The position numbers and the translations under genes were made by a program. Shown piece after piece: positions 40,714 through 60,742 of a stretch of DNA of 64,000 bases. A model generated the notes under the pieces. That model ran no database searches and was not told where the DNA came from. It saw only the letters and a program-made list of their open reading frames with translations. Source of the stretch: Endozoicomonas sp. (GTDB lineage Bacteria; Pseudomonadota; Gammaproteobacteria; Pseudomonadales; Endozoicomonadaceae); contig JBPCXN010000127.1 in the NCBI GenBank assembly GCA_051008495.1, forward strand, positions 15,273 to 79,272, in the 5' to 3' direction. Within the stretch, counting starts at the first letter, position 1. Every line of letters starts with the position of its first letter.

Positions 40714-41655
40714 ATGAATTCAAATAATAATCAGAACACTGATCTCCACGAAGCCATGCGAACCAGCGTTGCCCGTCAGGTGCAAGCCCTGCAGACGCTG
40801 GAACAGCGGATTAACGGTGAATTTTCCGAAGCCCTTCAGTTGCTGACCCAGTGCCGTGGGCGCGCCATTCTGTTTGGCATGAGCCAGTCCGGCCTCATTG
40901 GTCAGAAGATAGCGGCCACGCTCTACAACGCGGGCCTGTCCAGTCACCTGATCAACCCCTCGGATGCATGGCACGACAATCTCAGCATGGTTGGCCCTGG
41001 AGATATCATCATAATGCTGTCGTACAGCGGCAAAACAGAAGAATTGCTTCGTCTCTCTCCCGGTATTCGACATCTGGGCAATAAGGTCATCGCCATCACC
41101 GGAGACCCGGATGGGCCAGTGGCAGCACAGGCTGATGTGGTGCTGGATGCCAGTGTGCATGAAGAAAAGGAAGAAAGAGAGTTCGCCCCAACCACCTATA
41201 CAACCGTTCTGCTCACCATTGGTGATCTGCTGGCCGAAGCACTGCAACGTTTCCAGGCGGTCAATCAGCAGTCCCTGCAGAAAGACCAGAAGATTGCCTG
41301 GGTACGCAATATCATGAGCCGGGACACTTTTGGCCGGGTTGCTCCAGACAGCAAGGTGGGAGATGTCATGCAGGCGCTGACATTAAGCGGCGCAAAAATT
41401 TGCCTGGTCATGGATAAGGAGATTCTCTGTGGCGTCATTACCGACGGTGATCTGCGCAGAAGACTGTCCGGGGTCGACAGCCTGAGTGGCCTCTCGGCAA
41501 GGGACATCATGAACGGCTCACCTGTGAGTATCCGGGAAGAAGCCAGCGTCACTGAAGCCCTGAACCTGATGGAAAAGCAGCATATCCGAGCCCTGGTGGT
41601 TCAGGACGCCTCCAACAAGGTGATTGGCGTTGTCACCATTGATCACTGCCGATAG
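40714..41655 (+). CDS. KpsF/GutQ-like SIS + CBS protein, degenerate active site
   Basis: G.S.SG.IG.KIAAT, SYSG.T.E, ITG, APTT.T, GD.LA, two CBS domains (GVITDGDLRR). GKSGH is GQSGL-like and the HPGG segment is missing. Confidence 0.85.
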   Translation: MNSNNNQNTDLHEAMRTSVARQVQALQTLEQRINGEFSEALQLLTQCRGRAILFGMSQSGLIGQKIAATLYNAGLSSHLINPSDAWHDNLSMVGPGDIIIMLSYSGKTEELLRLSPGIRHLGNKVIAITGDPDGPVAAQADVVLDASVHEEKEEREFAPTTYTTVLLTIGDLLAEALQRFQAVNQQSLQKDQKIAWVRNIMSRDTFGRVAPDSKVGDVMQALTLSGAKICLVMDKEILCGVITDGDLRRRLSGVDSLSGLSARDIMNGSPVSIREEASVTEALNLMEKQHIRALVVQDASNKVIGVVTIDHCR

Positions 41656-41865
41656 TCGTTTATTCGAAAAACGATAGCGGCCATTCCACGGTCACTATCG
41701 GATCAAGACTTTGCCATAGAGAATCATCGGAGAGGTGCCGTTAAAGTCCGAATCCTGATAGAGGTCTATATTGCTCACGGTCTGATTGAGAGGATAATTC
41801 CAACGGCTGATAGTTTTCCCTTTCTTTGAGCCAATCAATCCGCCGTAAGGTTCAGCCGGGTTTCC
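41618..41865 (-). pseudogene. Left direct repeat: kpsF-like 3' end plus internally deleted 3' remnant of the 59915..61648 oxidoreductase
   Basis: 41618-41716 matches 59873-59971 (91/99); 41714-41865 matches 60591-60742 (about 138/152); the ~620 bp between is deleted at a cca microhomology. Confidence 0.9.
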
Positions 41866-42491
41866 TACGTTTTGTCTTTATCCACCACATAAATCGGGCG
41901 GAGCATATGGGCAGTAAAAGGACCATACAGTTTACGAAAGTCCGTAAACCAGCTGCTGAACTTGCCTGGCAGAATCATAAACTCGCCAAAATTGGGATCA
42001 AAGATCGAATAAAAGCCCTCTTTCTTCTCACTGGACGTGCGATAGAGGGCAATACTGTGGGCCCCACCGCTGGCTCCCTGAACCGAACCGGAAAACCAGA
42101 AAGAATAGACAAAGCCACAACCGCCCCGTGTGATGGTTTCACTTCTCAGGCGACTCTGACTGAATGCCTCATAATTGATTACAGCACTTTTGGCCTCAAG
42201 CCCCCTCAGCCTCAGGATCATGGCGTCAGCATGCTCACAATCAGCAGCATCCGACGACCAGCGCGATACAAAAGCCTGCTGCAGAACTATATTAATCCCA
42301 CCGGCATTCTTATGTAGCACGTCCATACGCTCACTGGCTCTCTGTCTGGGTTTTTCCAGAATCATTCGTAGCCAGTGCAGGGAAAAATTATGGCAGGCTC
42401 CCATGTCGGCAATATGTGATCCTGTGCGGGACGACATGGTCAAGGTCTGATCAAACCCGCTTTCAAGAAACTTCACCATGGTACTCAACAT
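41865..42491 (-). CDS. YopT/AvrPphB-type cysteine protease (peptidase C58), candidate T6SS effector
   Basis: GAC(33)HNFSLHW, AH(145)SIA, FD(165)PNFGEF; last gene of the tssA-hcp-tssBCC-EFG operon, overlapping tssG. Confidence 0.85.
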   Translation of the reverse strand: MLSTMVKFLESGFDQTLTMSSRTGSHIADMGACHNFSLHWLRMILEKPRQRASERMDVLHKNAGGINIVLQQAFVSRWSSDAADCEHADAMILRLRGLEAKSAVINYEAFSQSRLRSETITRGGCGFVYSFWFSGSVQGASGGAHSIALYRTSSEKKEGFYSIFDPNFGEFMILPGKFSSWFTDFRKLYGPFTAHMLRPIYVVDKDKT

Positions 42492-43431
42492 CCCTGGGTG
42501 ATATGTGATTCAGCAATACCGAAACAGTTCTGCCTGTACACTGCTCCGGTCGTAAGATCTGGTACTGTCCCAGTCGAAAGCCTTCTCCACCCAGAGAAGG
42601 GGCTGACAGCAGATGACCTGCCAGATCCACCCGACATCGCAGAGGGTCGGCTCTCAGCAGCAAACGGGCTAAAGTATAGAATTCATTAATCAGCTCTCGG
42701 GAGTTGTTAATTTCCAGCCACCGGGTACGAGTGAACACCTGAATATGAACGGATACTTCAGCACCTTGCAGCATGACTGCCTGCCCCAGAACCATCCCAT
42801 GTCCCAGGGCCATACCAGCAGGCCCCAGCCTCCAGACCGAGGATTCATCCAGAGGCTGCCTTAACAGATGGTTCCGCCTGATCCTGACCGGCATCGAAAA
42901 ATAGTCAGACAGGATTCGTTCAATTCCACCATGATGAGTACTGACCACCTTCAACCGCGAATGAAAGCGAAACAGGACGGCACTCTGCCTGAAAGAACGG
43001 CCATGCAGACCATTAAGATCCAGAAAAGCGCTGTCAGATAACGCCTCCTGCTGTTCAAGCGCCTCCACCATCACAGGCAATGAACTGTAACGTTCCACCA
43101 GAAAGCGTTTTAACAGCAGGCTCTGGTTAAACAGCTCAACCAGGGCAAAAAGACCGTCATCCTGCCGTTCAATGCTGGCCTGCCTCAAGGCATCCTGAAA
43201 GTAATGGGGCATCACGCCCCTGGCACCAGTCAGACACTCCAGGTTAGCCGTTACACGGGGCTCTGGTTCACCTCGCTCTACAGCCAGAACTTCACTGTTC
43301 GACCAGCAGTCATACAGCCGGGTTTTAACCTCTGGCAGTTTCCCGTCAACAGACAACAGTAACCGTATAGCCTGACTGAACTGAAACAGACCAGGACGTC
43401 TCAGCAACTTTTCAAGAAGAAGCTCAGCCAT
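42463..43431 (-). CDS. tssG: T6SS baseplate subunit TssG
   Basis: FQFSQAIRLL, L.GA.GVMP.YF, ELFN..L, ILSDYF..PV.I, LG.G.VLG; position after tssF. Confidence 0.85.
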   Translation of the reverse strand: MAELLLEKLLRRPGLFQFSQAIRLLLSVDGKLPEVKTRLYDCWSNSEVLAVERGEPEPRVTANLECLTGARGVMPHYFQDALRQASIERQDDGLFALVELFNQSLLLKRFLVERYSSLPVMVEALEQQEALSDSAFLDLNGLHGRSFRQSAVLFRFHSRLKVVSTHHGGIERILSDYFSMPVRIRRNHLLRQPLDESSVWRLGPAGMALGHGMVLGQAVMLQGAEVSVHIQVFTRTRWLEINNSRELINEFYTLARLLLRADPLRCRVDLAGHLLSAPSLGGEGFRLGQYQILRPEQCTGRTVSVLLNHISPRDVEYHGEVS

Positions 43432-59641: not shown

Positions 59642-59678
59642 CCCTTATCGACACCCAGCTCCCCCAAAAGCCAGCCAG

Positions 59679-59878
59679 AACCTGCTCAGAAAAGGCAACA
59701 GGGTCTCTATAGACTGACTGATGATAAGGATTCCAATGAGAGTAATCGTCTACGAAAAGACCCCATGTTCAAGCTCGCCACGGGACACATCCCTCTGGAC
59801 AGTACTAGAAATCTGGCGTCAGCACCTACTTTTACAAGACTGGGACAATCTATGACCCGGTCTGATATTTACAGGTGA
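59679..59878 (+). pseudogene. IS1380-family transposase fragment
   Basis: Frame 59696-59875 reads ...DSNESNRLRKDPMFKLATGHIPLDSTRNLASAPTFTRLGQSMTRSDIYR*, matching the IS1380 N-terminal D.N....LR.DP.FK...G......LAS.PT..RL pattern; truncated at both ends. Confidence 0.75.
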
Positions 59879-60742
59879 TTGGCGTTGTTATCATTGATGA
59901 CTGCCGATAGTCGTTTATTCGAATACCGATACCGGCCATTCCACGGCCACTATCGGATCAAGCCTTTGCCAGAGTGCTGAATGAATAACCCTGTCCGGAT
60001 CAAGTTCCTCACGCAATGCCTGGATTTTTTCGATACCCTCCTGATACTGGGAGCGCAGTAACTCATCAGGCACGTGAGTTTCCTTCAGCAGATGTACTTT
60101 AACCCCCAGTTCCGCCACCTGCTCACTCAGCTCGCGGAAGAACGCTATGGTATGCCTGGCGCGATCGCTGTCCCGCTGATCAATAGCAACGGTAATCTGG
60201 TAAACCAGTAAATCACTCGTGGTGTGAGGGGACATCACCATCTTGCTGCGGGGCACAGGCGTCACGTCCTGCAACATTATATGCGGATAGACCCACCGCC
60301 TGTACTCCTTTCCCTCGGCTCTGCTGTTCAGCAGATCACCCGCATACTGCATAAATGATTCCAGCATTTCTGAGGGCACCACCCAGGCCTGATGGGCCGA
60401 AGCAAACTCCGTTACCGATTTACCGCCATGGGCTTCCCAGTAGCCGTTATGGTAAAAGGTATAGTTGTAGATATCATTGGTGTACCTGGAACCTTCTGAC
60501 ATGAAAAGCCTGATCACCATATCTGGAACGCCGGTATAAGCCAGATGATGTGCCAGCCTGATCAGCTTTGCCTTACGCCAGTTGCTTTCACCATAGAGAA
60601 TCATCGGAGAGGAGCCGTTAAAGTCCGAATCCTGATAGAGGACTATATTGCCCATGGCCCGATTGAGAAGATAATTCCAACGCCTGATAATTCCCCCCTT
60701 CTTTGAGCCAATTAATCTGCCGTAAGGTTCAGCCGGGTTTCC
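59873..60742. repeat. Right copy of the direct repeat bracketing the T6SS cluster
   Basis: Begins with a copy of the last ~12 codons of the kpsF-like gene and continues into the oxidoreductase 3' half; ~91-92% identical to 41618-41865. Confidence 0.9.

Follow-up and report, generated by a model that had tools for sequence, protein, structure and literature searches.

A type VI secretion island between direct repeats of its host locus in Endozoicomonas sp.

A secretion cluster between two copies of its host locus

In a 64,000-nucleotide stretch of an Endozoicomonas sp. genome (GenBank assembly GCA_051008495.1, contig JBPCXN010000127.1, positions 15,273 to 79,272 of the forward strand; hereafter, the window), 16 type VI secretion system (T6SS) genes lie between a gene encoding a sugar-phosphate isomerase-like protein with SIS and CBS domains (hereafter, SIS/CBS) and a gene encoding an FAD-linked oxidoreductase. 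Profile searches with Pfam and NCBIfam assigned all open reading frames (ORFs) of this island to T6SS parts or to a putative effector (Table 1). A preliminary description of the locus, made from the sequence alone, had proposed that the island is bracketed by long direct repeats of the locus that harbors it, and that it entered between duplicated copies of an originally ~870-bp segment. We reexamined the repeats, the junctions and the corresponding loci of related genomes, and weighed the routes by which the island might have been acquired.

Repeat searches and direct counting identified two pairs of direct, ungapped repeats on either side of the island, with 91 of 99 identical positions between 41618-41716 and 59873-59971, and 138 of 152 between 41714-41865 and 60591-60742, reproducing exactly the figures of the preliminary description. 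Under a binomial model, the number of such matches expected among all pairs of positions in the window is 1e-34 for the 99-bp pair and 1e-54 for the 152-bp pair, and the next-best direct repeats within 40-62.5 kb (31-36 nt, 72-74% identity) remain at chance level. The right copy is an unbroken segment of 870 bp, made up of 38 bp from the SIS/CBS 3' end, a 4-bp spacer (TCGT) and the 3'-terminal 828 bp of the oxidoreductase gene, which runs on from the copy without a break to its start at 61648. The left copy adjoins the intact SIS/CBS gene and is the same 870-bp segment without 619 bp (59972-60590). Both sides of the island thus conform to the structure first proposed, with a full kpsF-like gene and a deleted oxidoreductase remnant on the left, and a stub of about 40 bp of the kpsF-like 3' end and the full oxidoreductase gene on the right.

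The 619-bp deletion is frame-shifting, and its joint falls in a CCA trinucleotide inside the imperfect repeat CTTTGCCA/CTTTCACCA, as expected for slippage or illegitimate deletion. The left copy is an internally deleted pseudogene. Both copies preserve the SIS/CBS 3' end, the identical TCGT spacer and the oxidoreductase 3' end. The longest runs of identity between them measure 24 bp in the first block and 28 bp in the second, with none reaching 31 bp. The arrangement as a whole, with two direct copies, each continuous with its own flank, and an insert lying exactly between them, is that of the product of a homologous single crossover.

Comparison with other Endozoicomonas genomes identifies the T6SS cluster as an insertion. 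The loci of E. arenosclerae (L001) and of a metagenomic relative (L004) are colinear with the window over 30.7-40.3 kb and then jump to 59.95-61.5 kb, where the oxidoreductase gene lies, with L001 also harboring the Ysc84 gene nearby (window 61.85-62.4 kb). Nothing in either locus matches window 41.9-59.6 kb, and the backbone that extends from FtsX through PqiBAA and DeoR to the oxidoreductase and Ysc84 is colinear in two relatives that have no T6SS at this position. Four further genomes (L006, L011, L012 and L014) present the SIS/CBS gene at 71-74% identity and the PqiBAA-DeoR backbone, again without a T6SS there, and the syntenic locus of E. elysicola (L007) likewise lacks it. The same T6SS module, in the same gene order, was found in L009, L010 and L013, in three unrelated contexts with different neighbors. 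The VgrG and TssM proteins of L009 are 64% identical to those of the window, and the part shared with L009 (41874-59641) corresponds exactly to the space between the repeats. A search for flanking direct repeats around the L009 and L010 modules returned only the tandem C58 protease paralogs of L009. The sporadic presence of the module at this locus is in line with a previous report that about half of Endozoicomonas genomes harbor a T6SS, with a scattered distribution that suggests repeated transfer (PMC12465592).

The preliminary description reconstructed the ancestral locus as two directly convergent genes. The two copies show this arrangement for the lineage of the window, because both of them contain both gene ends and the identical spacer. 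An empty site with the SIS/CBS gene directly convergent on the oxidoreductase gene, which the preliminary description expected in relatives, was found in none of those examined. The oxidoreductase gene is convergent with a PdxA-family gene in L001 and L004, which have no SIS/CBS gene, whereas L006, L011, L012 and L014 present PdxA followed by SIS/CBS (L012 without PdxA) and have no oxidoreductase gene, nor any oxidoreductase remnant beside SIS/CBS. Across the genomes compared downstream of SIS/CBS (L006, L007, L011, L012, L014 and the window), the DNA 3' of this gene differs in every case, and consists of ferritin and TenA genes, AsnC and Ysc84, an autotransporter gene and ISL3, flagellar genes or the T6SS. 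The stretch just 3' of SIS/CBS is a recurrent synteny breakpoint or insertion hotspot.

Assembly, junctions and stability of the island

The window derives from low-depth metagenome data, and alleles 9% apart could in principle represent strain variants, as they would if the contig were a chimera of two strains. We evaluated this reading using Logan per-run unitigs from two public runs that hold the region (X1 and X2). The left junction is crossed by unitigs of both runs (X1, 41086-43000; X2, 41817-42456), the joint of the 619-bp deletion by an X2 unitig (41495-41836) and the right junction again by unitigs of both (X2, 59792-60871; X1, 59706-59881), all with 0 mismatches. Depth is 5-9x inside and outside the island alike, and no alternative joint was seen at the junctions in the unitigs of either run. 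Furthermore, the copies share no identical run of at least 31 bp, so that they could not have been merged or exchanged in a graph built at k=31. A misassembly, which the preliminary description had named as one outcome that would undo its reading, is therefore very unlikely and the least probable of the explanations considered here, although only long reads would exclude it in full. A single strain-level difference was observed at position 58810, inside tssM, where run X1 has A against the G of both the window and run X2.

At the left junction, the oxidoreductase remnant ends at GGGTTTCC, the last C of which is used by the stop codon (TAG, minus strand) of the C58 protease gene, and the joint between GGGTTTCC and the TACG that follows shares at most this single C. 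Compared with the two tandem copies in L009, the C58 protein shows 74% and 64% identity and has a C-terminus shorter by 2-8 residues. The right junction consists of 231 bp between the tssM stop codon and the right copy. Most of this interval is a fragment of ~186 bp from the interior of an IS1380-family transposase gene (PF13701, DDE_Tnp_1_4; profile positions 72-117 of 435, E=2e-8), overlooked in the preliminary description. No second copy of the fragment or of the spacer was found in the window or in the loci compared, and the fragment looks like filler or a scar rather than an active element. One-ended mobilization by an IS1380 (ISEcp1-like) element was considered and rejected, since the fragment is oriented away from the T6SS and retains neither end. 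Both junctions are non-specific and fall inside coding sequence.

Pfam and NCBIfam searches of all ORFs in 41.8-59.9 kb and of the flanking genes detected no integrase or recombinase, in agreement with the absence of a visible integrase first remarked on. No tRNA or tmRNA gene was found in the 64-kb window, and neither an attachment (att) site nor a complete insertion sequence (IS) was found at the island. The locus also departs from a composite or IS-mobilized transposon, as there are no IS ends and no second copy, and the duplication is 870 bp long rather than short.

The preliminary description suggested that the repeats offer a route for excision. This now appears unlikely, given that the longest identical runs are limited to the 24 bp and 28 bp noted above. 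To restore both genes, a crossover would have to fall in the 99-bp block; after one in the 152-bp block, the oxidoreductase gene would still lack the 619 bp. Neither an excised or empty form nor a joint linking the repeats was present in the X1 and X2 unitigs, which at this depth drop rare forms. Deletion and divergence have effectively fixed the island.

Gene content of the island and its flanks

The island encodes the T6SS-i core components TssB, TssC, TssE, TssF, TssG, TssJ, TssK, TssL, TssM, Hcp, VgrG and PAAR, detected with Pfam profiles above their gathering cutoffs, and a 398-aa protein that matches TssA weakly (52 bits against a cutoff of 161). No ClpV/TssH-like ORF was detected in the cluster with Pfam or NCBIfam, and the ClpV gene may lie elsewhere in the genome. 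Operon 1 is colinear with that of L009, and operon 2 with those of L009, L010 and L013, all four clusters ending at the tssM stop codon.

The module belongs to a T6SS subfamily with a tandem TssC pair, in which a full TssC (494 aa; NCBIfam, 550 bits against a cutoff of 271) is accompanied by a divergent 412-aa copy that scores 153 bits, below the cutoff. The pair lies at 45516-48238 (minus strand) in the window, at 4722-7414 in L009, at 4375-7162 in L010 and at 12929-15817 in a Vibrio plasmid (L015). Conjugative plasmids of Vibrio crassostreae, V. tubiashii, V. europaeus and V. gigantis carry the same pair in the same gene order, their TssC proteins being 65-67% identical. The Vibrio plasmid relative carries tssH after tssG; the Endozoicomonas clusters, which have no ClpV/TssH, present in this slot a variable eukaryote-type toxin: one YopT-type C58 protease in the window, two in L009 and a ribosome-inactivating protein (PF00161) in L010 (regions compared: window 41865-43431, L010 836-2228 and L015 18031-21632). 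The C58 protease is a probable T6SS effector, and the occurrence of variable eukaryote-type toxins after tssG, with no adjacent immunity gene, suggests a host-directed system.

On the left of the island, the gene order is FtsX/ABC, GDSL lipase, 4HBT, PqiB, two PqiA genes, DeoR and the SIS/CBS gene; on the right, the oxidoreductase gene is followed by Ysc84 and chorismate lyase. The DeoR protein is 90% identical to those of L001 and L006, and the Ysc84 protein is 68% and 64% identical to those of L001 and E. elysicola (L007), both in the same neighborhood. The two PqiA genes (37807-39118, minus strand) are overlapping ORFs of 230 and 225 aa with one PqiA domain each, an arrangement that constitutes a conserved split and not a frameshift, because it recurs in L001, L004, L011, L012 and L014. 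The PdxA-family gene that adjoins the oxidoreductase gene in L001 and L004 lies between DeoR and SIS/CBS in L006, L011 and L014; it is absent from the window, where a search revealed no remnant of it, including in the 395-bp gap at 40319-40713.

For the oxidoreductase, the SIS/CBS protein and VgrG alike, the best named matches come from Endozoicomonas, and protein searches with these three queries returned no close relatives from JGI. The SIS/CBS protein scores 190 bits against the kpsF model TIGR00393, under its cutoff of 203.7. Its relatives at 60-76% identity are all of the Endozoicomonas type (the nearest, P0010, at 76%) and true KpsF/GutQ proteins are ~40% identical, so that by sequence it can be assigned to a KpsF/GutQ-like but separate, Endozoicomonas-specific subfamily. 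In the window this protein has 313 aa, 9 residues below its 322-aa relatives, with CGA TAG where these have CGG AAG, and the early stop is present in both repeat copies (41650-41655 and 59905-59910). The oxidoreductase family is rare, with 8 homologs in the protein database, the best of them, from E. arenosclerae, at 51% identity. A search of the genome contigs with an oxidoreductase profile matched only E. arenosclerae, with no close relative in the collection.

Table 1. Features of the island, the repeats and the neighboring genes (window coordinates)
Feature	Position	Strand	Basis and remarks
DeoR-family regulator	39560..40318	+	Pfam DeoRC, HTH_DeoR; left backbone gene, conserved
SIS+CBS sugar-phosphate isomerase-like gene, intact	40714..41655	+	Pfam SIS, CBS
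Left repeat block 1	41618..41716	.	SIS/CBS last 38 bp, 4-bp spacer, oxidoreductase last 57 bp
Left repeat block 2	41717..41865	-	Oxidoreductase remnant, codons 303-352; joined to block 1 by the 619-bp deletion
YopT-type (Peptidase_C58) cysteine protease	41865..42491	-	Pfam PF03543, TIGR01586
T6SS operon 1	42463..50610	-	TssG, TssF, TssE, divergent second TssC (412 aa), TssC, TssB, Hcp, weak TssA-like (398 aa); Pfam, NCBIfam
T6SS operon 2	50709..59641	+	VgrG, DUF6931, PAAR, TssJ, TssK, TssL, TssM; Pfam
Right-junction filler	59642..59872	+	Includes an IS1380-family transposase gene fragment (59687-59872), internal and truncated on both sides
Right repeat	59873..60742	.	Complete 870-bp copy; spanned by X2 unitig 59792-60871, 0 mismatches
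FAD-linked oxidoreductase, intact	59915..61648	-	FAD_binding_4 and ALO-like C-terminal part; Pfam, NCBIfam
Ysc84-domain gene	61845..62387	+	Pfam; right backbone gene, conserved

Routes of acquisition and comparison with known systems

Together, these results suggest that the T6SS entered the locus by recombination rather than through an integrase. The explanation that we favor, with a confidence only a little above even, is homology-anchored acquisition from a relative at ~9% divergence, in which either a circle underwent a single crossover or one homologous joint was combined with an illegitimate one. A bare T6SS module (41866-59641, with its two divergent operons and the YopT-type effector gene), together with the 231-bp filler, would have entered the synteny breakpoint through the general recombination machinery of the cell, with no integrase or transposase involved. 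The incoming DNA would have carried an 870-bp patch of the same locus from the diverged relative, made up of the SIS/CBS end and the 3' 828 bp of the oxidoreductase gene, with arbitrary ends. In a first route (a), a circle bearing this patch would cross over once with the chromosome, in a Campbell-type integration. In a second (b), a linear molecule running from C58 through tssM, the filler and the stub into the oxidoreductase gene would recombine homologously within that gene on the right side, its left end being joined illegitimately at oxidoreductase nucleotide 907. Either route would place the patch on both sides of the insert and leave both host genes intact. The 619-bp deletion, at a 3-nt microhomology, would later have disabled the redundant left copy, and this deletion and the 9% divergence would now guard the island from loss by recombination between the repeats. 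The preliminary description had put forward a circle carrying a diverged allele or an old duplication, between which the tests described below disagree, and it did not contemplate the linear route combining homologous and illegitimate joining.

The main competing explanation, which we consider a good deal less probable but still worth serious attention, is a duplication-insertion in situ followed by long decay. T6SS DNA, possibly from elsewhere in the same genome, would have been inserted through two illegitimate joints at sites separated by 870 bp, by a process such as unequal sister exchange or template switching, and the copies, identical at first, would have drifted to 9% in their non-functional parts and lost 619 bp. 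The two explanations differ in when the divergence arose: under routes (a) and (b) it would have been imported, and most of it would predate the event, whereas under duplication in situ it would have accrued afterwards.

Several observations weigh against acquisition from a diverged relative, and some of them are what decay in situ would produce. Neither a donor nor a circle, an empty site or a close relative was found, and for a natural circle or fragment to bear exactly this patch, the donor must already have undergone one illegitimate event or more. The coding differences between the copies comprise 18.5 replacement and 3.5 silent changes (omega ~1.5), and in tests that sample only 22 substitutions a value of omega=0.2 is rejected (p=1e-4) and omega=1 fits (p=0.43). 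The oxidoreductase differences, distributed 9:5:5 over the codon positions, follow the flat pattern of a decaying pseudogene. The substitutions hence look neutral, as drift in a non-functional copy would have it. In addition, both junctions are illegitimate, and the early SIS/CBS stop common to both copies is lineage-specific, which fits a duplication within one genome. The shared stop also places the two alleles in closely related lineages. Composition, which the preliminary description proposed to compare, proved nearly the same inside and outside the island, with a slight shift (GC 0.519 inside versus 0.530 and 0.510 in the flanks; GC3 0.564 versus 0.603; correlation of relative synonymous codon usage r=0.92 versus a within-flank baseline of 0.965). 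It thus gives no sign of a foreign origin and fits duplication in situ, but it is also compatible with a related donor or with age.

Other features of the same substitutions argue for an imported functional allele. The 15 amino-acid differences avoid conserved columns, affecting 0 of 16 strongly conserved positions and 15 of 52 others (Fisher p=0.01). Codon 319 encodes K in the remnant, similar to the outgroups (R/K), and G in the intact gene, so that it is the remnant that looks ancestral. Despite 19 substitutions, the 206 coding nt of the oxidoreductase remnant contain no small indel and no stop. The surviving pieces come from stretches of the protein that are poorly conserved, and only for this reason can the high replacement ratio suit functional alleles as well. 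Decay in situ further requires that a useless 250-bp remnant outlast the long time needed for 9% neutral change, and identical 870-bp direct repeats would quickly delete the island. Polarizing the allele differences with outgroups failed for the oxidoreductase, whose homologs are ~50% identical and contain indels in the stretch; for the SIS/CBS stub, it assigned one derived change to each side. On balance, the evidence leans modestly towards an imported allele over decay in situ, with routes (a) and (b) jointly carrying most of the weight and a two-step variant adding a little.

In this two-step variant, which we regard as unlikely, the T6SS would first have interrupted the oxidoreductase gene at its nucleotide 907. 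A relative would later have supplied an intact allele, together with 38 bp of the neighboring gene, through a homologous crossover in the 5' part of the oxidoreductase gene and an illegitimate joint inside an IS1380 copy at the right end of the island. This sequence of events would account for the exact coincidence of the transposase truncation with the copy boundary, and of the end of the left remnant with the C58 stop codon. It would also supply a selective reason, the repair of the oxidoreductase gene, and it shares its divergence evidence with direct acquisition from a relative. Nonetheless, it demands one event more than the alternatives, leaves the 5' truncation of the transposase fragment beside tssM unexplained and requires the displaced 5' part to have vanished without trace. 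An extension of route (a), to which we assign a similarly slim chance, is that the T6SS module moves among Endozoicomonas as an integrase-free circular cassette that picks up a patch of host DNA by imprecise excision and integrates in the Campbell manner; if true, such a cassette, akin to a natural suicide vector, would be a general and overlooked route of movement for secretion-system islands. A classical integrase-mediated island or integrative element that has since lost its integrase and att sites is more improbable still: flanking direct repeats and a sporadic distribution are typical of such islands, and elements that target genes frequently come with a replacement 3' end, but the island and its surroundings harbor no integrase, excisionase, tRNA, conjugation or phage gene, its content is the T6SS module alone, the modules of L009, L010 and L013 also lack an adjacent integrase, and the junctions cut coding sequences.

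If the island was acquired from a diverged relative, as we favor, the event was ordinary in kind and calls for no new mechanism, and the locus is a well-preserved natural example of it that involves a secretion system. The transfer of the scattered Endozoicomonas T6SS has so far been deduced from distribution alone, and this locus keeps the scar of one acquisition. It would illustrate that a whole secretion apparatus can be installed by ordinary recombination, with no mobile-element machinery and with both target genes left intact, and that a small later deletion and sequence divergence can lock an island in place. The locus also provides a worked example for island detection, as methods that seek integrases, tRNAs or skewed composition would miss this island.

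Among known systems, the locus is a genomic island in the broad sense; it differs from integrase/tRNA islands and transposons, and its structure matches that of a Campbell-type product. In E. coli conjugation, single crossover of a circle with part of a homologous locus yields flanking duplications of 109-950 bp (PMC3240628), a range that includes the 870 bp observed here. The two cases share a contiguous stretch of host DNA directly duplicated on either side of the insert, independence from site-specific enzymes and the possibility that neither host gene is disrupted; here, however, the insert is a natural 18-kb T6SS module, no circular donor was seen, the copies are 9% diverged and one of them is deleted. 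Homology-facilitated illegitimate recombination (HFIR), described in transformable bacteria and E. coli, usually entails a deletion in the recipient, 3-10 bp of microhomology and an insert of ~1 kb (PMC3240628). Route (b) would resemble it in that one homologous anchor and one illegitimate joint import DNA with no homology at the other end, but the joint would fall within the homology of the anchor and so produce a duplication, and the locus departs from HFIR in its microhomology of at most 1 nt at the left joint, its ~18-kb insert and its lack of a recipient deletion.

Other elements enter genes by site-specific means. The e14 element and phage 21 integrate into the E. coli icd gene and bring a replacement 3' end, so that, as here, the hybrid target gene remains intact and the displaced, diverged 3' end persists as a pseudogene beyond the insert; these elements use an integrase and a short core site, whereas the island has no integrase and its junctions are non-specific. 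With other horizontally moving T6SS islands (PMC12465592), the island shares presence and absence among relatives and varied chromosomal contexts, and the same T6SS subfamily travels on conjugative Vibrio plasmids. It differs from those islands in that the long repeats of the host locus, the filler DNA and the trimming of the effector gene have kept the footprint of its insertion.

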